Source: a virus. From it: DNA of 44,145 bases. The position numbers and the translations under genes are program-made. The stretch is taken from the IMG/VR virus record IMGVR_UViG_3300027834_000002, positions 1 to 44,145 of that record. One strand, written 5' to 3'. Below, one piece after another: positions 2,024-44,145 of the stretch. Within the stretch, counting starts at the first letter, position 1. Every line of letters begins with the position of its first letter. The notes under the pieces are model-generated. The model saw nothing but the letters and a program-made list of their open reading frames with translations, made no database searches and was not told the DNA's origin.

Positions 2024-2446
2024 TTACGTTTCCCATTTATCCGTAATCTTTATTGGATTTCCATCTTGCCATCTTCTTTGATTAAGATATGTTGTCAACA
2101 TTGGAATATATTTTCCATTGTTGTCTAGCCAATTGGTCGTTTTCTTTTTCGTTTCAATATCTTTTATTATATTAATGACTATAGCCTTATCTGGATTAAT
2201 GGATGCCATACATTGCAACACCATTGGCTTAGAAACTCTTTTACCGGTAGGGTAGGCATTCCATACAGCTGTCATCATAGCTCTAAGCTCTTCACTGTAT
2301 ACCTTGTCTACTTTTTTCCTAACAGTCTTCTTGCGTGGTACAAATACGGCTCCTGTTTCTTCAATGTAAACGAATCCACCGTGGACTCTCCTTACCTTTC
2401 CGCCGTCCGATAGCTCCGTTAACTCGTTTATCTTTAATTTATTCAT
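2024..2446 (-). CDS. Hypothetical protein (140 aa), possibly replication-associated
   Basis: Track ORF. The C-terminal pattern W..YP......KYIPMLTTYLNQRRWQD resembles tails of phage replication-organiser/DnaD-like proteins. This is from memory and is weak evidence. Confidence 0.7.
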   Translation of the reverse strand: MNKLKINELTELSDGGKVRRVHGGFVYIEETGAVFVPRKKTVRKKVDKVYSEELRAMMTAVWNAYPTGKRVSKPMVLQCMASINPDKAIVINIIKDIETKKKTTNWLDNNGKYIPMLTTYLNQRRWQDGNPIKITDKWET

Positions 2447-2666: not shown

Positions 2667-3107
2667 CTAATCCCAGATATAACCTAATTCAAGATATCCT
2701 GATGGAAGATGACAAGACCTATGTTTTTCTATTGTGTCATTATATCTACTCATAGGTACAACTCTCCTACCGTATCTTGATTTATTATCATTGCGTGGTG
2801 CATAGAGTACGTCCTCTATGAGATCATACTCTCTAACCATGCTTAGGTATTTGACTATATATGGAAATCCAGCATACATAGATGCATTATCTTTCATGCA
2901 TTCGACCACTTCATGGTAGATATCGTTTATATCTACGTTAGGCTTACATCCGGTCATATGTTTAATCATGATTCTGATTTCATATAATCCTTCCCTATCA
3001 AATCCTGTTTCCTTGGGTGGTATCGAAAGATACCTATAGAGACTTTCAGTCTCATGTCGTGGGATAGGTTTTAAAACTTCATTATATCTATTTTTCTTGT
3101 CTTTCAT
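2667..3107 (-). CDS. Hypothetical protein (146 aa)
   Basis: Track ORF. No motif recognised. Confidence 0.75.
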   Translation of the reverse strand: MKDKKNRYNEVLKPIPRHETESLYRYLSIPPKETGFDREGLYEIRIMIKHMTGCKPNVDINDIYHEVVECMKDNASMYAGFPYIVKYLSMVREYDLIEDVLYAPRNDNKSRYGRRVVPMSRYNDTIEKHRSCHLPSGYLELGYIWD

Positions 3108-5875: not shown

Positions 5876-6142
5876 TTAAGAGTAAACTACGACGGTTGCC
5901 TGCTGGTTTTTGATTCTAACTGAGTTGACGTCGGCCAGACCATCCTCTCTTGCTGAAACTGCCTGGGCTATGACCTCTTGTCTCATCTTATTAGTGATGC
6001 AGTTGATACAATTTCCCTTAACGACGTAATCCTCAAACATTTCGATTAACTCTTTGGTGCTGATTTTGATTGTCCTACTATGAAACGAAACGTACTCTTC
6101 GTTTCTATCGCGATCTTTTGATCGCATGTTAAATGTTCCCAT
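5876..6142 (-). CDS. First early gene, hypothetical protein (88 aa)
   Basis: Track ORF. ATG 6142 is preceded by AGGAGA (AATAGGAGACAATCATG). It is the first ORF downstream of the large non-coding region. Confidence 0.75.
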   Translation of the reverse strand: MGTFNMRSKDRDRNEEYVSFHSRTIKISTKELIEMFEDYVVKGNCINCITNKMRQEVIAQAVSAREDGLADVNSVRIKNQQATVVVYS

Positions 6143-6342
6143 GATTGTCTCCTATTAAAGTTTCGTTAAAGTTGATCTATAGTAGTGCAGGGAGTGTGCC
6201 AAACTAGGAGGTTATGAAATAAAGTTTGTAAGTGACTGATAGTACTAGGTTAGATGATATTATGGTGTGTTGTACTACAAAAGTGGAAAGTGTAAAGTCG
6301 TGACGTAAAATGTTCCATTATGTGGTAAAGTAGGTACTATTT

Positions 6343-6368
6343 AGGTGGGAAAAGGTGGGAAAAGGTAG
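6343..6368. repeat. Tandem 10-mer AGGTGGGAAA x2 plus a partial third copy (AGGTAG)
   Basis: Read directly: aggtgggaaa (6343-6352), aggtgggaaa (6353-6362), aggtag (6363-6368). Confidence 0.9.
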
Positions 6369-6400
6369 TGAGAACAAAGAGATATAAAACTGGAGCAATT

Positions 6401-6428
6401 ATTGTAACAAAATGACAAAAATTGTCAC
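6401..6428 (-). promoter_or_regulatory. Candidate sigma70-type early promoter (-35 GTGACA, 16-nt spacer, -10 TACAAT) built from two ATTGT[A/C]ACAA boxes
   Basis: Minus-strand hexamers were read from plus attgta (6401-6406) and tgtcac (6423-6428). The boxes attgtaacaa (6401-6410) and attgtcacaa (6421-6430) are 20 bp apart. The host is unknown, so the consensus match is only suggestive. Confidence 0.25.
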
Positions 6429-6435
6429 AACACGG

Positions 6436-6479
6436 ATGAGACACTTTGAGACACTTTTTGAGACACTTTTATGTCTCAT
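6436..6479. repeat. Iteron-like block: GAGACACTTT x3 direct plus one inverted half-site, bracketed by the 8-bp inverted repeat ATGAGACA/TGTCTCAT
   Basis: Read directly: gagacacttt at 6438-6447, 6448-6457 and 6460-6469, tgtctc at 6472-6477, and atgagaca (6436-6443) inverted to tgtctcat (6472-6479). Confidence 0.9.
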
Positions 6480-6641
6480 TGATGGATTTCAGTGGGAATT
6501 AGGGGAAAATAGGCTGAGGTTAGTGTTGATTTAGGTGAAAATAGGCTAGAATTAGAGGAAATTAGGTTGAGGTCAGGTTGAGGTTAAGCTAGATCAGGTC
6601 GAGATTAGGGTGGATCAGGGTGAAATTAGGTCAGGTTAGGG

Positions 6642-6683
6642 GCAACCTAAAGGGTTGCTGAAGATACTTTGTAAAAGTATCAG
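6642..6683. repeat. Left arm of a perfect 42-bp inverted repeat; each arm is a twin-hairpin module
   Basis: gcaacctaaagggttgctgaagatactttgtaaaagtatcag is the exact reverse complement of 7207-7248. It contains hairpins gcaacc-taaag-ggttgc and gatacttt-gta-aaagtatc. Confidence 0.95.
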
Positions 6684-6720
6684 CTGGATCAGGGTGGATC
6701 AGGCCAGGTTAGGGGTGGAA

Positions 6721-6782
6721 TTAGGTTGAGATCGGACTAGATTAGGTCAGGTTAGGTTGAGATCGGACTGGATTAGGTCAGG
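6721..6782. repeat. 31-bp tandem duplication inside the array (one mismatch)
   Basis: ttaggttgagatcggactAgattaggtcagg (6721-6751) is followed directly by ttaggttgagatcggactGgattaggtcagg (6752-6782). Confidence 0.9.
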
Positions 6783-6817
6783 TTAGGTCAGGTTAGGTTA
6801 GGATTAGGTCAGGTTAT

Positions 6818-6845
6818 CCCACCCCTCAACCCCTACTTCACCCCC
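6818..6845 (-). other. Canonical G-quadruplex motif on the minus strand (C-tract block on plus)
   Basis: Plus reads cccacccctcaacccctacttcaccccc. Minus reads GGGGG-TGAAGTA-GGGG-TTGA-GGGG-T-GGG, which fits G3+ N1-7 repeated four times. Confidence 0.7.
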
Positions 6846-7034
6846 ACGAAACCCGATTAATCCAGGATAACACAAATTATCAAGCAATATCCCGATATAA
6901 CCACCCTCTCAGAGCCACCACAATCGACGTTCTTCCACCCACCTAGCCCTAGGTATGGGCTGACCTAAGATGGCTTAGTCAGGTTAGGGATAGGTTAGTT
7001 TAGATTAAATCAGGGTGGGTTGTTATTACCGCTT

Positions 7035-7064
7035 GGGGGGGTTGGGGTAGGGGGTTGGTAGGGG
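7035..7064 (+). other. Canonical G-quadruplex motif on the plus strand, an imperfect inverted copy of the 6818-6845 block
   Basis: GGGGGGG-TT-GGGG-TA-GGGGG-TTGGTA-GGGG. It is followed by the small hairpin gggg-agaaa-cccc (7061-7073). Confidence 0.7.
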
Positions 7065-7206
7065 AGAAACCCCACTAACCATACAATATGTTTTTTCAAA
7101 AAGAGAAAAAAACTATAGAATGGAATCGAAAGATTTCTATAGCGATGAACGTTCCTTTGACGAAAGTACTTCTCGTCTCATATGTTTTTTTTAAATCTAA
7201 CCCAAC

Positions 7207-7248
7207 CTGATACTTTTACAAAGTATCTTCAGCAACCCTTTAGGTTGC
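7207..7248. repeat. Right arm of the perfect 42-bp inverted repeat
   Basis: ctgatacttttacaaagtatcttcagcaaccctttaggttgc is the reverse complement of 6642-6683. It extends imperfectly by 7 more bp (gttaggg versus ccttaac, 6 of 7). Confidence 0.95.
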
Positions 7249-7380
7249 CCTTAACTTTTCCCCTACCATATGTCGCATAATATTTCATTATAAAATATTA
7301 TTTATTATAAATACCAACTCCCACATGAAACCGTATAAGTTTCTATAGTGACATACCTGTCACACTTAAAACCAATGAGC

Positions 7381-7421
7381 ATAAGAAAAAGGTGGTAAGA
7401 GATATACAATCCCCTACCACC
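7381..7421 (-). terminator. Rho-independent terminator closing the late (virion) operon
   Basis: Minus-sense GGTGGTAGGGGA-TTGTATA-TCTCTTACCACC forms a 12-bp stem (two G-U pairs) with a 7-nt loop, followed by TTTTTCTTAT. It starts 5 nt after the stop codon at 7426. The two wobble positions would be A-C mismatches in plus sense, so the structure is specific to the transcribed strand. Confidence 0.8.
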
Positions 7422-7425
7422 CACA

Positions 7426-7725
7426 TTATCTCTTCCCAATCTCTTGGATAATAAACACTAACGTATTGTCTATTCTATCTAATCTCTTTACAATATGAGA
7501 CTGGAAGTCTTTATAGGTATCTTTCGATACCATCTCCCTAAGCTCTCCTTTTACGATATAAGTTTCAGGTAATGTAACCACTCTCTCTGTTATCCACCCT
7601 AATACTGGCAGTGTCAACATAAGGAATCCTATAAATACCTTTTTCCAAGCTTGGCTCTGAGCTAAGATCAACTCCTTAACACCGTGAGATGCATCCAGTG
7701 GCTCTAACTCTCTTTTATATTCCAC
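7426..7725 (-). CDS. Small membrane protein (99 aa), last gene of the late operon; holin-like candidate
   Basis: Track ORF with a GTG start preceded by TGGAGA. It has one hydrophobic helix (VFIGFLMLTLPVLGWI). Its position at the end of the structural module fits lysis genes. Function not shown. Confidence 0.7.
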   Translation of the reverse strand: MEYKRELEPLDASHGVKELILAQSQAWKKVFIGFLMLTLPVLGWITERVVTLPETYIVKGELREMVSKDTYKDFQSHIVKRLDRIDNTLVFIIQEIGKR

Positions 7726-28701: not shown

Positions 28702-30507
28702 TTACCAGAAGAAGTCATCCCCCCTGTTAAAGATGTTTTGTGCTCTGATTTGTTCATTGCATTGTTCTGTAACTGTTTTTGTTTTTCCAATCTGCTCTCC
28801 ATTTGGGATATGTGCCTCATGCCAAGCTTTCGCTTCTGCTATAGGCTTTGATTTCATAGACGGTGCTAGTTGATCAACTTGGATAGCAATACCAAAAGCC
28901 ATAACCATATCATCATGTGCACCTTTCTTCGCTCGTGCTTTACCTGTTGAAGTTCTTATAAAGGTAAGCATTTCACCTATTAATCTTTGACTATGTATAG
29001 CACCAGCTTCATCTATCAACCATTCTTTAATGCCAGATATTAACTCTCTCTTTGAAGCTGAGTCTGTTCTCCATCCTTTCTTAAATGTAACACCGTTATT
29101 TACAACATCATATCTTGGAGCCATAAATAGGTTAGGTATGTCAAGATCTACAGCTTTATCGAATGTAGATAAGCCAGGCCCTGTTGTTTCAATAGCAACC
29201 CACGGATAATCTTCTTCGAAAGTAAATAGAATAGCTATTATCTTTATAATTCTTGCCATAAGAACTTCATCTAGCCTTGAATAATAAGTTGCCGCTATAG
29301 ATTTAAGATTCCTATCATATACTATAACACAAGCATAATCACCATCTTCAGTACCTTCAACTATATCAGCTGCTATAACATATTCATGATCTTTATTAGG
29401 GTCTGTATAGCAAACTAAATAATCCTGTCTATCTAAAGGTTTGTCTACCTTTTCGCTCGAGAAATCCTCATGCATTAAGTGGTAGTATGACACTGGGTTA
29501 TCATTAAGTTCTCTTAAAACCATTAAGTAGTCAAGAGCCGTTCCACTAAATACAGGGTTACCGGATCCAATATAACAGAGATTTATCTCCTGATCCATCT
29601 CTTGCTCATCATACCTAAGACTTTCCTTGACATACCATGGAGACTTTAAAACTTCTTTCGGTTTCCATTTATCACCTAGTCTACCTTTAGTATTCTCATT
29701 AGGTGCAGGCCAAACACAGTAAATGTTTTTAGATTTAAGTGGATGCATCGGCCAACGTAATGTTATTTTCCTGGTGATTCCGCTTGTAACTAAATCATAA
29801 TACTTACAATTTACCCCAAAAGGAGTACCTATGGCAATCCTACATAGAGATGCACCAGCTCCAGATGTCCATGCTTTAGCATCAGTGTCTTTCCATTTAG
29901 AAAACTCATCGTAAAAGATAGCTTTATATCTTCCACCAGTTGAAAACTGTACATTATTGGATTCTCCTGTTAAGACTGAGCCTGTAGCTGGATTGATTAA
30001 CTTTAGTTTATTGTCATGTTCTTTAACATCATACCCTTTAGGTACTAACCATTTAGGCAACCTAGCTATCACATACCTAAGCTTAGGAAATAGTGACGAC
30101 ATATTACCTCTATCATCAACAAACATTTCCTTCCTTGAGCCAAGTAAGAAGTCATTCCCTGGTTTCGGGCTTAGCCAAAACCATAACATAACTAAACATA
30201 TCATCCACGTAGCACCCATATCTCTACACTTTTCCCAGACAACATCCTCTCCTACTTCTATAATTCTCTTTAAATCAAGAATAGCGTCATCCTGGAAAGG
30301 GTATGTTGCGAACGGTAGGTGAGACATAACAGCAGTGGGTCTTGGATCATAAGTAAAGAAAAACACATTAAAAGCAAAGACTATATCTTCGTAAAACAAT
30401 CTCTTTAATGATTCCTTAAGTATAGGGTCTCTTTGAGCTTTCTTTAATATCTTGCTACGCCATATAAGGTTCTCTCTTGGGTCTTTTGGATATTTAATCT
30501 TATCCAT
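28702..30507 (-). CDS. terL: Terminase large subunit (601 aa)
   Basis: ATPase motifs WEKCRDMGATW (Walker A-like) and AIFYDEFSKW (Walker B). The C-terminal nuclease motif is GAHDDMVMAFGIA. It lies directly after the TerS candidate. Confidence 0.9.
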   Translation of the reverse strand: MDKIKYPKDPRENLIWRSKILKKAQRDPILKESLKRLFYEDIVFAFNVFFFTYDPRPTAVMSHLPFATYPFQDDAILDLKRIIEVGEDVVWEKCRDMGATWMICLVMLWFWLSPKPGNDFLLGSRKEMFVDDRGNMSSLFPKLRYVIARLPKWLVPKGYDVKEHDNKLKLINPATGSVLTGESNNVQFSTGGRYKAIFYDEFSKWKDTDAKAWTSGAGASLCRIAIGTPFGVNCKYYDLVTSGITRKITLRWPMHPLKSKNIYCVWPAPNENTKGRLGDKWKPKEVLKSPWYVKESLRYDEQEMDQEINLCYIGSGNPVFSGTALDYLMVLRELNDNPVSYYHLMHEDFSSEKVDKPLDRQDYLVCYTDPNKDHEYVIAADIVEGTEDGDYACVIVYDRNLKSIAATYYSRLDEVLMARIIKIIAILFTFEEDYPWVAIETTGPGLSTFDKAVDLDIPNLFMAPRYDVVNNGVTFKKGWRTDSASKRELISGIKEWLIDEAGAIHSQRLIGEMLTFIRTSTGKARAKKGAHDDMVMAFGIAIQVDQLAPSMKSKPIAEAKAWHEAHIPNGEQIGKTKTVTEQCNEQIRAQNIFNRGDDFFW

Positions 30508-34633: not shown

Positions 34634-35154
34634 TCAATTAAAAGATTTTATATCATCCAAAACGCAATGAGGTCTCTTATCAGCTTCTATTAGAGCATCT
34701 TTAACTCTACAAGCTCCTTCAAAAGCTTTATAACTGCCGTGATATTTTTGTTTACCTCCCTGACCTGTATGCTGAACATCCCACATTCCTTTGGATTTAT
34801 TAAAAGTAACACCTGATTTTCCGGATGTGTTATGGCTTTTTTCCTGAGAATTACAGTGGTGTCCTATTTCCATTAAGTTATCAATTCGATTATCATCCCG
34901 AACATGATTGATATGATGGATTTCATTTTCTGGAAAATATCCTTGAGTATAAAACCATGCAAGTCTATGTGTAAGGTAAGATTTACCGTTAGCTCTGATT
35001 TGTCGATAACCAGACACCTTATTTAAACTCCCAGCAAGCGCACCAGTTTTTACATTTTTTTTGCTACATCCTTTAACCAATAAAAGTTACCAGTATCGGG
35101 ATCGTACCTCAGAATTTCTTTTAATTCTTCCTGTGTTAATCGTGTCAGGCTCAT
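34634..35154 (-). pseudogene. HNH/AP2 homing endonuclease interrupted by a -1 frame change in an A8 run (would be about 173 aa if repaired or slipped)
   Basis: ATG 35154 (ATGA overlap with the upstream stop) gives MSLTRLTQEELKEILRYDPDTGNFYWLKDVAKK and then stops. Frame -1 continues NVKTGALAGS...HRLAWFYTQGYFPENEIHHINHVRDDNRIDNL...SGKSGVTFNKSKGMW. The join lies in the minus-strand run AAAAAAAA (35055-35062). The N-terminus matches the intact paralog at 38866. Confidence 0.8.
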
Positions 35155-36762: not shown

Positions 36763-37522
36763 TATATCCTCTTTAATAAAATTTAGGCATAGCTTTATCA
36801 TAAGACCGTAGTGGATACATAGTTACAGGGTTAAGCAAACCACCCACTTACTATATCCAAACAGTCACCAATACAATTCTTACACTCAGTAAAAATCACT
36901 GAGAAAATAATACAGGGTATCAATCCTACACTTTAAGATTAGCTATACTTTAAAACACACTCTTTATCAGGTACCTAATCAACTTCAGGAAAGGTGAGAA
37001 CCTGGGACACCAGTTTTATCTTTAAAGAAAGCTACCTTGACAGCTTGAATTCCACGTTTTGCATGTTTATCTAAATAAAGGAAAGCTAAAATTCCCCTTA
37101 CTTAACGCCCGTCTTAAGGCGGAGTGTTGTTTCTTTACTATTAAAAACATTTGTTGTCTTCCATACTTGTAGGAAGATTTTTAAGTCTCCCTTTTCAGGG
37201 AGGGTGAAACTAAGCCACTACTTTTTTAACGGCTTGCAAACCGTTCAGGTAAAGATTAGGTTGCTGTGAAAACCTGTATATACTAAATGCCTAATGCTAT
37301 AGCAATAGAACTATAACGTTCATGTTGACCTTAAGCCAAAGATTCATAGGCATATCCTTATCTAGTTCATAAAAGCTTTCAACGCTTTTATATTACCTTT
37401 TTATTTTAGAGCTAACTCTAAGGAAAAAGAAGGCACTTTAAAAACCTAATTATGTAATTCCTCTCTATACATTTGTCCAAGATAAGAGAGAATATAAGCT
37501 GTTTGCTTTACAAATCTAACTT
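36763..37522. other. 760-bp ORF-free, hairpin-rich intergenic region (candidate structured RNA or regulatory region)
   Basis: There is no minus-strand ORF of 60 aa or more. Many short stem-loops are present: ctcagt-aaaaatc-actgag (36885-36903), tcttcc-atacttgta-ggaaga followed by ttttta (37158-37184), ctccc-ttttca-gggag, aacgg-cttgcaaa-ccgtt, aggtt-gctgtgaa-aacct, and the palindrome tgctatagca. Confidence 0.7.
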
Positions 37523-38072: not shown

Positions 38073-38866
38073 TAAACCTCCATGACTTTAATCTTAAACC
38101 TGCCTGATGATTGTGGCGTTATCGTAATCTCAAAACCACCAAGGGTTGTAGGTAGATAATTCGCAACCTCAGCATAACTTGTTGTACCCTCTTCTAAAGT
38201 TTTAAGAAAAGTACCGCACTCTATAATATACCTTTCTTTTGCTATGAAGTTGCTCTTGCCTGAAACAGAGAGCTGAGGATACGCTTTGAAGACTTTACCA
38301 TGTGAGTGACCGAAAAGGAACAAGTCTGCATCATATGACTTAAGATCTTTCTCGTACCTTGTTAAACTTGCTCCACCTGTTCTCCCTGCGCCATGACCAT
38401 GGTGCGCCCTGATCCTTACAGTGCGACCACCGTGGCCGCCTTTAGTTAAGACAAGCTTGTAGTAGCATGAATAACCAGCGTACGTCAAGCCTAGTGCCTT
38501 ACAGATGCGTTTAGTGGGGTTCGTACCGGAGTGTTTGAGTATGGTTTCTTCATGGTTCCCTGTTCCATAACCTATGAACTTATCTTTAATGGGGGTTAAG
38601 AGGTCGCATGCCATTTCTATCTGGTCATCAATTATTGCGGAAGACTTTGTCTTGTCTATGGCCTTGGAGTATCTAGGATCCTTAGTCCCGATTGCATCTA
38701 CTATGTCTCCTCCCCCAATGTAAAATAAATTGTCATCCTTGCATGAGATGAAAGATTTGAACGCTGCTTCATCAGCAAGCTTGTTACCTAAATGTACGTC
38801 AAAAATTGGCCGCAGCCTGATACTTTTAAACTCTGAATAGTTAATCCGTCTGTAGATTATCTCCAT
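38072..38866 (-). CDS. Calcineurin-like metallophosphoesterase (264 aa)
   Basis: It carries the full MPP motif set: DVHLG, GGGDIVD, GNHE, HHGHG, GHSH. Confidence 0.85.
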   Translation of the reverse strand: MEIIYRRINYSEFKSIRLRPIFDVHLGNKLADEAAFKSFISCKDDNLFYIGGGDIVDAIGTKDPRYSKAIDKTKSSAIIDDQIEMACDLLTPIKDKFIGYGTGNHEETILKHSGTNPTKRICKALGLTYAGYSCYYKLVLTKGGHGGRTVRIRAHHGHGAGRTGGASLTRYEKDLKSYDADLFLFGHSHGKVFKAYPQLSVSGKSNFIAKERYIIECGTFLKTLEEGTTSYAEVANYLPTTLGGFEITITPQSSGRFKIKVMEV

Positions 38867-39357
38867 TAGTCTTCTCCTGTAAAGCAGGTTAAAAATTTCG
38901 CTCGCACGGTTTTGTTTACGAAAAAAGCTTGGGTAAAATCCTGGTAGGAACCGTAATATATTCCTCTATACCTTACTCTCCATTTTTTACCCTTCTTTCT
39001 CCAGCGAATCCCAGTTACGCCAGACGTATTGTTGACCTGGACACCCCTGTTTTGCATATTGCACGCATGTGTCGCATGTCTTAAGTTTACCCAGCGATCA
39101 TCTATTCGGACTCTGTTCCAGTGATCCACTTGATGCTCCGGAAAATAACCCTCCATATATAGAAATGCCAGGCGTGCTCGTCTATAGAGCTTATTATTAG
39201 TTCTTATTCGCCAATATCCATCAGATCCTAACCCACCAGCAGTGTCTCCAGGTTTAATTATATTACTACGAGCAACCAACCACACCATCTCACCAGTCTC
39301 CGGATCGTACCTCAACAGCTCCTTAAGTCTCTTCTGTGTTAACTTTTTCTTACCCAT
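38866..39357 (-). CDS. HNH homing endonuclease with AP2-like DNA-binding domain (163 aa), the intact copy
   Basis: N-terminus KLTQKRLKELLRYDPETG, HNH core HQVDHWNRVRIDDRWVNLRHATHACN, then SGVTGIRWRKKGKKWRV (AP2-like). It is free-standing between unrelated genes. Confidence 0.85.
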   Translation of the reverse strand: MGKKKLTQKRLKELLRYDPETGEMVWLVARSNIIKPGDTAGGLGSDGYWRIRTNNKLYRRARLAFLYMEGYFPEHQVDHWNRVRIDDRWVNLRHATHACNMQNRGVQVNNTSGVTGIRWRKKGKKWRVRYRGIYYGSYQDFTQAFFVNKTVRAKFLTCFTGED

Positions 39358-39861: not shown

Positions 39862-39871
39862 ACAACCTCCT

Positions 39872-40225
39872 TTAATATAAATTATCAGACATAAGTTCAA
39901 AAAAATCATCCAGATCCATACATACAACTGGTTTAGTTCTATTCTTTCCCATGACCAGCAACCACATAGTGCCAGGCATTACGTTGCTCTTGGCCTGATC
40001 TATGAATGATGGCATAGTCCATTTCTCGCAGTTCTTACACTCAATACTGAACGGGAACTTATCTCTAGCTTCGCCTATTAGCTTAACGTCTACTCCGGAT
40101 TGTGACATCTCTCTTGACTCTATCAAGCAGTCTTTACCATGAGGTATCCCTGTTAGTTCAGATATCTTCTGAGCTACCAACTTCTGTAGTTTGCGCCCCT
40201 TAGCTTTACATGATGATGTTTTCAT
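39872..40225 (-). CDS. PD-(D/E)XK nuclease (117 aa), Holliday-junction-resolvase-like
   Basis: The pattern KGRKLQKLVAQKI...GVDVKL...FSIECKN has the G..(E/Q)..V helix followed by D...ExK, as in Hjc/VRR-NUC-type nucleases. It has a 1-nt overlap with the ThyA-like gene. Confidence 0.55.
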   Translation of the reverse strand: MKTSSCKAKGRKLQKLVAQKISELTGIPHGKDCLIESREMSQSGVDVKLIGEARDKFPFSIECKNCEKWTMPSFIDQAKSNVMPGTMWLLVMGKNRTKPVVCMDLDDFFELMSDNLY

Positions 40226-41588: not shown

Positions 41589-42096
41589 TTAAAGTTTTAT
41601 TATTTGTTCCGTGAAACATCTTTGGTCTTTACCTGCTTCAATACATGCTTCTTTTGCTGCTATTGCATCTTGCTTTGATTTAAAACGTCCGATGTATTTA
41701 CGTTTCCCTCCTGTTGTGTGCCTAGTTATCCAACAATTTTCAGCTTTACGATAAGACACTCCAGAACAACCTGATGTATTAGCTGTGCTGTTTTGCATAT
41801 TACAATAGTGTGTAACTTCACGTAGATTAATAATTCTATTGTCGCCTTTAATATTATTTATGTGATCAACCTCATACTTCAGGGAAGTAGCCGTGAACAT
41901 ATAACCATGCTAGTCTATGCCCCCTATAACGTTCCCCGTCAATCCAAACCTGGATGTACCCATTAGAGTCAGTGGAATTGAGGATATCACCAGCTTTTGC
42001 ATTCCATTTTCTATCCACCTTTCGAACGAACAACCCGGTAATCTCATTATAATCCAATAATTCTTTCAATCTTTTTTGTGTTAATTTCTTTTTCAT
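41589..42096 (-). pseudogene. HNH/AP2 homing endonuclease split by a +1 frame change (74-aa plus 103-aa fragments)
   Basis: Fragment 1 reads MKKKLTQKRLKELLDYNEITG...HRLAWLYVHGYFPEV* and fragment 2 reads ...YEVDHINNIKGDNRIINLREVTHYCN...SGCSGVSYRKAENCW. Together they are colinear with the intact copy at 38866. The break is near 41872-41900 and is not in a homopolymer. Confidence 0.8.
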
Positions 42097-43420: not shown

Positions 43421-44145
43421 TTAAAAGCCTCCATAAATAATAGGGTCTTGATCGTATACCTTTTGATATCTACCTTCAAATGCCAGCGTTGAGTGCCATA
43501 ATTCGCCATCTCTTGCTTTGAGACATGCTATATCAAGGTTACTTGATCCTCTAGTCTCGGTATGGAGCATTAAGCATATATCTGCGTCGGCTTCGAGGCT
43601 TCCTGAATCTCTAAGACCGCTTAATCTTGGTCTCTTGTTTTCAATATCCCTCCTTAATTGAGCTAATGCTATGACAGGTGTATTGTATTCCTTGGCCATG
43701 GATTTCAATGCACTACTAATTATCCCAAGCTCAAGATTTCTATTACCTGTACGAGCTTTAACATACATTAACTGCACATAATCTATAAATATAGCTGATA
43801 CTTTATTATTCATAGTGTATGAAGCTATAAAGGACTCTACATTCTCAAGCGCTTTGAAGAAAGGTTTATCTATTACAACAGTATTAGATTTACTAACAAT
43901 ATTTAACGCATTGTTTAGTTTATCCATTTCACTATCGTTTAGATCAGCCTTTTTAAGGTTAGTTAAATTTATAAGGCCTATACTGGCTAACCTACGCATC
44001 ATAACAGCTTCGGAACTCATTTCAAGCGAAAAAAACACACACTTCCCATCATAATGTTTCGATATATATTCTATCATATTTAATGCTAATGCTGTTTTAC
44101 CTATAGATGGTCTAGCTGCAATTAATGTTAAAGTCTTGGGCTCAA
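43421..44145 (-). CDS. dnaB: Replicative DNA helicase DnaB, C-terminal part (continues from 1..689 across the junction)
   Basis: RecA-like core motifs: CVFFSLEMS, IFIDYVQLM (Walker B), VIALAQLRRDIE and SGLRDSGSLEADADI. The frame stays open to the window end and matches bases 1-127. Confidence 0.9.
   Translation of the reverse strand, partial: EPKTLTLIAARPSIGKTALALNMIEYISKHYDGKCVFFSLEMSSEAVMMRRLASIGLINLTNLKKADLNDSEMDKLNNALNIVSKSNTVVIDKPFFKALENVESFIASYTMNNKVSAIFIDYVQLMYVKARTGNRNLELGIISSALKSMAKEYNTPVIALAQLRRDIENKRPRLSGLRDSGSLEADADICLMLHTETRGSSNLDIACLKARDGELWHSTLAFEGRYQKVYDQDPIIYGGF
44019..44145. repeat. Right copy of the exact 127-bp terminal overlap
   Basis: Identical to 1-127. Confidence 0.95.

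Follow-up and report, generated by a model that had tools for sequence, protein, structure and literature searches.

A composite 1.28-kb repeat region at the single late-to-early junction of a circular phage assembly is a candidate packaging or terminus site

The window analysed here is the whole of IMG/VR virus record IMGVR_UViG_3300027834_000002 (44,145 nucleotides), and its subject is a gene-free, repeat-rich stretch at positions 6143-7425, flanked by the minus-strand open reading frames (ORFs) 5876-6142 and 7426-7725. An original prediction, made from the letters of the window, had described this stretch as free of ORFs, and inspection of both strands agreed: no credible ORF was found, those inside being only 20-44 aa long, a tRNA search of 6143-7425 returned none, and Rfam gave nothing at gathering level or with a credible E-value. 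It is not, as had been supposed, the sole ORF-free stretch of a packed genome, since a second one lies at 36802-37522 (721 bp). All of the repeats and hairpins listed in the prediction were present in their places, and its terminator, 31-bp duplication, palindrome and inverted hairpin pair were recovered. The region is composite and consists of three parts, namely a terminator, a middle of ~900 bp, and an early promoter/operator module with its leader.

On the plus strand, 15 of the 36 genomic copies of RTTAGG fall within the region, which makes up 2.9% of the genome, and the other strand of the region has 0. When a G-quadruplex-type (G4-type) motif was defined as four runs of at least three G with loops of 1-12, the only two such motifs of the genome coincided with the G-tract (7035-7064, plus strand) and the C-tract (6818-6845, minus strand) of the region. 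Twin-hairpin loci are similarly clustered, with 7 of the 11 in the genome falling in 6087-7532. The RTTAGG bias, the placement of the G4-type motifs and the clustering of twin hairpins are thus beyond chance.

The window begins and ends with the same 127 bases (1-127 = 44019-44145), which lie inside a DnaB-type helicase gene. Their reading as a biological terminal repeat was rejected; they are an assembler overlap in dnaB and mark a circular contig, whose length is thus 44,018 bp. The same length follows from an independent ENA MEGAHIT contig, which measures 44,159 bp and from which the presumed 141-bp k-mer overlap (the name contains k141) is to be subtracted. The fetched part of that contig is 100% identical, including all of 6143-7425. 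As judged from this independent contig, an assembly artefact in the repeat region is ruled out.

All credible genes lie on the minus strand. The transcription order starts with early ORFans, from 6142 down to 1, followed by replication and nucleotide-metabolism genes (DnaB, exonucleases, thymidylate synthase, ribonucleotide reductase) and then by the large terminase (TerL, 28702-30507), the portal, the major capsid protein and tail or internal proteins; the late block closes with two small genes, ending at 7426. Positions 6143-7425 therefore form the single late-to-early junction of the genome, and the predicted placement after a late terminator and before an early promoter, in a genome read in one direction, was borne out.

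The phage has few relatives. A single near-complete genome, L001/L099 (43,570 bp, proteins 40-84% identical), was available for comparison, the other relatives being fragments from the same or related samples (L100, L103, L106, L107, L108, L125, L126 and L128). A metagenome scan found the L001 contig and one fragment and nothing else; the iteron pattern gave 89 loci in IMG/VR, among which the L001 contig alone was related, and no exact 32-mer of the hairpin cassette was found in IMG/VR. In blastn searches against 50,697 phage records, neither the region nor 19.6 kb of late genes gave a match. The capsid protein is ~23% identical to those of Arthrobacter phages, the nearest matches of TerL are T4-type terminases at 21-24% identity, and the portal resembles that of P22 weakly, under the Pfam cut-off. 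On these comparisons the phage is very distant from all cultured phages. No DNA polymerase, recombinase, integrase or partition protein was detected in the scanned proteins, nor an RNA polymerase in any large ORF. Searches with an 88-aa early protein and with a 1137-aa protein matched only themselves and the L001 lineage; the 1137-aa protein was rejected as a tape measure, having no similarity to the L109 tape measure protein. GTDB genomes scanned with the promoter pattern and with a protein alignment (A2) gave nothing, and no host or prophage was identified. The fourth early gene of the related genome (L099 10984-11340) is an ArdA anti-restriction gene; among the early genes of the window no family was detectable.

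At the late end of the region, a terminator scan placed an intrinsic terminator of the late operon at 7390..7422 on the minus strand, with a 13-14-bp stem followed by TTTTTCTT; its folding energy is -8.2 kcal/mol (z = -5.0). An equivalent terminator stands at 8910-8947 in L001, directly after the last late gene of that genome.

At the early end, a sigma-70-type early promoter (6401..6428, minus strand) reads GTGACA-16-TACAAT with a TG extension, matches the consensus hexamers at 10/12 positions and is nearly invariant across four genomes. A palindromic operator, TGACAA-N3-TTGTCA (6413-6427, minus strand), overlaps the -35 and the spacer, and immediately upstream of the -35 lie GTGTCTCA boxes, three direct and one inverted (6437..6479, minus strand), where TGAGACAC(TTT) is repeated three times at 6437-6470. 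A 33-nt core of these boxes is identical in L001, which has five of them, the number ranging from three to five. Downstream of the promoter is an early leader of ~250 nt (6143..6400, minus strand) with two TTTCCCACCT boxes at 6343-6366, where AGGTGGGAAA is repeated 2.4 times, and a ribosome-binding site. This promoter-proximal module as a whole (6470-6143, ~320-330 bp) shows ~75% identity to L001 and is nearly invariant in four genomes (alignment A5). The proximal module is an ordinary early promoter/operator.

The middle part contains three arrays on the minus strand. Two are long: a more degenerate one with 21-32-bp super-units (6496..6634) and one of CCTRAY units at 5-, 10-, 11- and 21-bp spacing (6684..6816), within which lies the 31-bp tandem duplication (6721-6788, 97% match). 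The third is a short array of CTAAC/CTGAC-type units (6960..7015). Next to the second array, the C-run block on the plus strand (6818..6845; the sense strand is G-rich) carries one of the two G4-type motifs, and the G-run block (7035..7064, plus strand; C-rich on the gene-sense strand) carries the other. Between the two blocks is a central block on the minus strand (6911..6961), AGCCCATACCTAGG...GAGAACGTC...GTGGCTCT, with a palindromic core at 6941-6954. Two A/T boxes, ATATGTTTTTTYAAAA on the plus strand, occur at 7086-7101 and 7180-7195, and an AT-rich palindrome with 12-nt arms occupies 7277..7301, the 7th least stable 60-bp window of the genome. AT-rich segments extend over 7076-7206 and 7256-7340.

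Compared with L001, whose gap at the same place measures 1,291 bp, the middle 900 bp give no global alignment, yet their landmarks are collinear: A/T boxes and a C-run block (7102-7036), an array, the core block (6961-6911), a G-rich block and more repeats. The central block is 72.5% identical to that of L001 over 51 bp. L125 and L128 share it, and in both of them the core, ACCTAGGCCTAGGT, forms a perfect palindrome of 14 bp; across genomes the core palindrome spans 8-14 bp. By these alignments the central block is the sole well-conserved piece of the distal 900 bp. The G-rich block at 6818-6845 is kept in L001 and L128 and is weak in L125, and the 7035-7064 block stands at the same position in L001 and L106 as a C-run block. 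Canonical G4 motifs are not conserved in the relatives, and conserved G-quadruplexes were rejected on that account. Counterparts of the A/T boxes, in the form TTTCAAAATTATATTATATAGGGAGG, number two in L001, four in L107 and five in L106. Tandem boxes of ~40 bp, TTTCAAAA(A)TTATATYATATAGGGAGGCGYTATTC, are found five times in L106 (2835-3030), four times in L107 (2320-2470) and twice in L001 (9154-9221), so that copy number shifts between the near-identical contigs L106 and L107. The TATAGGGAG part of the 40-bp boxes resembles the start region of T7-type promoters and was not found elsewhere in the genome; a reading of CACTATAGAA plus TATAGGGAG as phage-polymerase promoters was rejected, the motifs being local and no polymerase having been found. 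Both TCRCTATAGAAA and TATAGGGAG-like motifs are confined to the region rather than spread genome-wide.

The arrays themselves differ in form, with direct CCTRAY units in the window and 19-bp units, CTAAC-N4-GTTAG, in L001. Despite this, both lineages show a 7-10-fold enrichment of the pentamer CTAAC in the gap, with 7.8 versus 1.1 per kb for the window and 8.5 versus 0.83 per kb for L001. Since this enrichment is shared although the arrays cannot be aligned, it points to selection for many copies of CTAAC rather than for a fixed sequence. The alignment of relatives that the original prediction had proposed as a check thus gave a divided answer: scaffold, core, terminator and promoter module are conserved, while the arrays and the inverted hairpin pair are not. 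Arrays and twin-hairpin cassettes turn over fast on a conserved scaffold.

The most prominent hairpins form a pair of 49-nt inverted arms, 6635-6683 and 7207-7255, which are 48/49 complementary and lie 523 nt apart. The right copy (7207..7255) reads in the sense direction GCAACC-TAAAG-GGTTGC, TGAA, GATACTTT-GTA-AAAGTATC, and the left copy (6635..6683) is its inverted, 48/49-identical counterpart. L001 has one cassette homologous to the right copy, with different stems that still pair owing to compensating changes, and nothing at the position of the left copy. The inverted pair is thus lineage-specific and not core architecture. A mini transposable element bounded by the 49-bp arms was also rejected, the interior being ancestral and collinear with L001. 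A further hairpin, of the ATCGAAAGAT family and followed by TATAGCG, lies at 7113..7145; together with the twin hairpins, the 7113-7142 hairpin folds with z = -4.5 to -5.4. In L108 a module of this type has the opposite orientation relative to the genes. Within the genome, the ATCGAAAGAT core occurs three times exactly and 11 times with at most one mismatch, versus 4.0 +/- 2.1 expected. Another twin hairpin, with a TATAG spacer (7327..7364; TGACA..TGTCA-CTATAG-GAAAC..GTTTC on the minus strand), bears one of the two exact TCRCTATAGAAA copies.

Two twin hairpins lie within coding sequence beyond the boundaries of the region. The first (6087..6126, minus strand), just outside 6143-7425, overlaps codons 1-19 of the first early gene, and its stems are kept by compensatory substitutions in L001 (10205-10250) and L125 (~820-860): GCGATC/GATCGC becomes ACGATC/GATCGT, and GAAACGAA/TTCGTTTC becomes GAAATGAA/TTCATTTC. 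Such covariation across relatives hints that the early message begins with a structure formed by RNA or by DNA. The second is a 38-bp element in the last late gene (7495..7532, minus strand), where it is a +27-bp in-frame insertion compared with L001. Its sequence is TGGTATCGAAAGATACCTATA[G/A]AGACTT[T/C]CAGTCTCAT, and a second copy, 36/38 identical, is found in the opposite orientation at ~3018-3055 (plus strand), both copies being inside ORFs. Two-hairpin cassettes also occur as insertions at other sites in L125 and L128.

We read the twin hairpins as a family of small palindromic cassettes that would be moving or locally generated and would accumulate at the junction. Bacterial REP elements and Rickettsia palindromic elements are small palindromic mobile elements, the latter inserting in-frame into genes. 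Like these, the cassettes are 38-49 bp of hairpins present in several copies and both orientations, are indel-polymorphic between close relatives, and have one copy in-frame in an ORF. They are, however, much shorter than the Rickettsia elements, no transposase was found, and near-identical copies number only two per type. Some cassettes may have arisen by local template switching rather than transposition. The cassettes show small palindromes reshaping phage intergenic DNA and even coding sequence.

The junction was compared with phages of known ends. In T7, read directly, the last gene is followed by five CCTAAAG and three CCTAAGG units, the 160-bp terminal repeat and 11 further CCTAAAG units, which agrees with the statement in the original prediction that heptamer arrays flank the terminal repeats of T7; there are x8 units before the repeat and x11 after it. 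The terminal repeat contains hairpins and a G-rich tract, and after the array come the host promoters A1-A3 and the anti-restriction gene 0.3, the whole junction comprising ~1.16 kb of non-coding DNA compared with 1.28 kb in this phage. SP6, gh-1 and phiKMV have their own 6-7-mer arrays, each at the left end. The only G4-type motif of T7, the one comparison phage for which whole-genome counts were made, lies in its terminal repeat (88-119 and 39865-39896). Left-end motifs occur within the first ~190 nt in SP6 (22-56) and gh-1 (108-192), the latter inside the annotated terminal repeat, and phiKMV has one at 2-30 on the opposite strand, again within the annotated repeat. The SP6 terminal repeat, which we take to be ~174 bp, would enclose its motif.

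The likeness to the T7 group therefore extends over several features: the last late and first early genes are separated by ~1.2 kb of non-coding DNA, a GC-richer unique core with hairpins and G-runs is flanked on either side by arrays (SRL and SRR in that group) of a 6-7-bp motif (CCTAAAG in T7, ACCTAA/CTAACCT here), host-type promoters come next, and an anti-restriction gene is among the first genes (ocr in T7, ArdA in L001). Unlike T7, however, this phage has no detectable phage RNA polymerase, phage promoters or DNA polymerase, and its terminase genes stand at the start of the late block rather than at the end. TerL of the window matched Terminase_6N only and not the PF22530 nuclease domain, which T7 gp19 matches at 5.6e-40, and a pairwise comparison with gp19 was not significant. 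The Terminase_6N match was rejected as a guide to the packaging mode, as gp19 matches it equally weakly. With no RNA or DNA polymerase found and a TerL that is nearest to T4-type enzymes, the description of the genome as T7-like did not hold.

A nested architecture of this kind had been thought to be undescribed, which proved wrong. In T5, the untranslated Repeat Region 3 (1.2 kb), situated where the long terminal repeat ends on its inner side, is a 'Matryoshka' in which direct repeats, inverted repeats and palindromes are nested (bioRxiv 10.1101/866236). It was put forward as a candidate injection stop signal (Davison, bioRxiv 10.1101/866236), and it includes a 9-copy direct repeat array with a distant inverted-repeat partner, its architecture being more conserved than the neighbouring ORFs (bioRxiv 10.1101/866236). 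The present region is likewise untranslated over ~1.2 kb, with palindromes and with direct and inverted repeats nested in one another. It differs in that the paired DnaA boxes of T5 (TTWTNCACA) are absent, the genome having three matches and 6143-7425 having 0. T5 moreover has a 10-kb terminal repeat and two-step injection. No polymerase, T7-type terminase domain, DnaA boxes in the region or sequence similarity was found, and the phage is a member of neither the T7 nor the T5 type. The architecture is thus precedented, with precedents that all lie at or beside genome ends, and the phage belongs to a novel lineage.

Terminase sites with repeated boxes form another point of comparison: the cosB R-sites of lambda, the pac hexamers of P1, and pacL/pacR of SPP1. 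As there, short boxes are found here on both sides of a possible cleavage core at near-helical spacing. Those sites adjoin or sit in the small-terminase gene, whereas the candidate small terminase of this phage (30517-31218, minus strand, without a family match) is ~23 kb away, as is TerL (28702-30507, minus strand); no pac or cos site within or beside a small-terminase gene thus corresponds to the region. A protelomerase target was rejected, considering that the core palindrome spans only 8-14 bp and that no tyrosine-recombinase-like protein was found.

Drawing on these parallels, we tentatively favour the possibility that the region is a packaging or terminus-type junction at which concatemers are processed, an account that we regard as plausible rather than probable. 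Replicated concatemers would be recognised in the middle part and cut there for packaging. The terminase cut would fall within or next to the conserved GC-rich palindromic core, leaving virion ends with either a short terminal repeat or cohesive ends, and the flanking CTAAC-type arrays would offer terminase or accessory proteins many sites on which to land, a proposal made because short-repeat arrays sit around the terminal repeat in the T7 group and at the end of the terminal repeat in T5. Entry into the cell would begin with the end next to the early promoters. Consistent with such a role, the region is the single late-to-early junction of a circular one-strand genome, with an identified and conserved terminator and promoter, and the 1.29-kb gap of L001 has collinear landmarks, among them the core block and the blocks rich in C or G.

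Several observations weigh against a packaging junction. The detectable relatives of TerL are T4-type terminases, which are classically headful packagers, and these, together with the weakly P22-like portal, are compatible with headful packaging and no fixed ends. The terminase genes are distant from the region, the G4 motifs are not maintained in relatives, and the near-coincident symmetry centres of the window (6941, 6945 and 6947.5) are not kept in L001. All the evidence comes from collapsed circular assemblies. L125 and L128 begin at one and the same array position, and L106 and L107 share the array in which they stop, but these contig ends were rejected as physical termini, the breaks falling at shared array units as a result of strain mixture. 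To our knowledge the function of the T7 arrays is itself unsettled, so that the analogy brings no established mechanism with it.

Should the ends map to the core, an arrays-at-end design beside early promoters would be common to three unrelated lineages, namely the T7 group, T5 and the present phage, which would argue for a general role of the arrays in packaging, end protection or DNA entry. The comparison set, four partial variants with different arrays and the same landmarks, supplies concrete targets for deletion and binding. A bolder form of the same idea, which we consider unlikely, is that the conserved scaffold of C-run block, CTAAC array, palindromic core, G-run block and further CTAAC arrays is a new genome-end and packaging signal in an uncultivated lineage unrelated to T7 or T5, and that the region has been seeded by undescribed mobile twin-hairpin mini-elements of 38-49 bp that also insert in-frame. 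In that case, arrays of a single short motif around DNA ends would be a convergent general solution of fixed-end phages, and this phage would offer a handle on the T7 arrays.

The T4-type relatives of TerL and the weak portal match would fit a headful phage whose pac site lies elsewhere, in which case the middle 900 bp would be a transcriptional buffer or regulatory platform without a DNA end. On circular or concatemeric templates it would keep late transcription from running on into the early genes, and a regulator or nucleoid protein bound to its arrays would modulate the early promoter. In accord with this view, the region has a terminator at one end and a promoter/operator at the other, GTGTCTCA boxes and an operator palindrome adjoin the promoter, and the sense strand of the arrays in the window is rich in C and poor in G, as in Rho-utilisation sites. 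That strand bias is absent in L001, however, where CTAAC and GTTAG alternate; 900 bp far exceeds what an insulator needs, and a DNA-binding domain was detected in no early protein. We therefore hold this alternative to be possible but somewhat unlikely. If packaging is headful, the region would be an unusually large, otherwise ordinary promoter/terminator spacer.

The rapid turnover of the arrays raises the question of whether the middle part has any sequence-specific function over most of its length. Slippage arrays and palindromic cassettes could simply accumulate there, as in the one spot of a compact genome that is open to them, with selection acting on the terminator, core block and promoter module only. 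In this respect, the arrays cannot be aligned between lineages whose genes are 70-79% identical, the 40-bp boxes number five and four in the otherwise near-identical L106 and L107, and cassettes appear as indels in L125 and L128 and are found even within ORFs. Yet gap length is kept (1283 versus 1291 bp), landmark order is conserved, and the 7-10-fold CTAAC enrichment in both lineages is not expected from independent neutral slippage, which makes this explanation rather improbable.

The original prediction had also proposed an origin of replication. At such an origin, iteron-like repeats would bind a phage initiator, which would melt an adjacent AT-rich segment and load phage DnaB. The short direct repeats, spaced 10, 11 and 21 bp, near one or two helical turns, the AT-rich segments 7076-7206 and 7256-7340, and the phage-encoded DnaB and initiator-like protein are in line with this proposal. 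It found little support otherwise: the region has 0 DnaA boxes, the least stable DNA is located elsewhere (34.56 kb and 2.57 kb, with 7277 ranking only 7th), the initiator-like gene (2024-2446, minus strand) is 3.7 kb off, the second ORF-free gap lies amid replication genes, and the arrays are not conserved as defined iterons. An origin here seems to us distinctly improbable.

Least credible by far is an invertible 523-bp switch flanked by the 49-bp inverted repeats, or a small RNA encoded by the hairpin modules, as the 48/49 identity of the arms, the opposite orientation of the L108 module, the frequent GAAA loops and the co-varying stems are set against the lack of any recombinase, integrase or invertase in the scanned proteins, an inter-arm segment collinear with L001, which is without the second arm, no Rfam family match, and no convincing conserved promoter-terminator pair.

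Two further observations concern the middle genes. Three HNH-type endonuclease genes are found among them (34634-35080, 38866-39357 and 41589-41900, the third with a weak AP2 match) and are likely homing endonucleases. The second ORF-free stretch, 36802-37522, situated amid replication and nucleotide-metabolism genes, gave no Rfam match and contains hairpins without repeat arrays. The gap is also present in relatives, where the conserved part is a block of ~100 bp (37487..37385 in the window), and candidate roles for it are those of a middle promoter, a small RNA and a replication origin.

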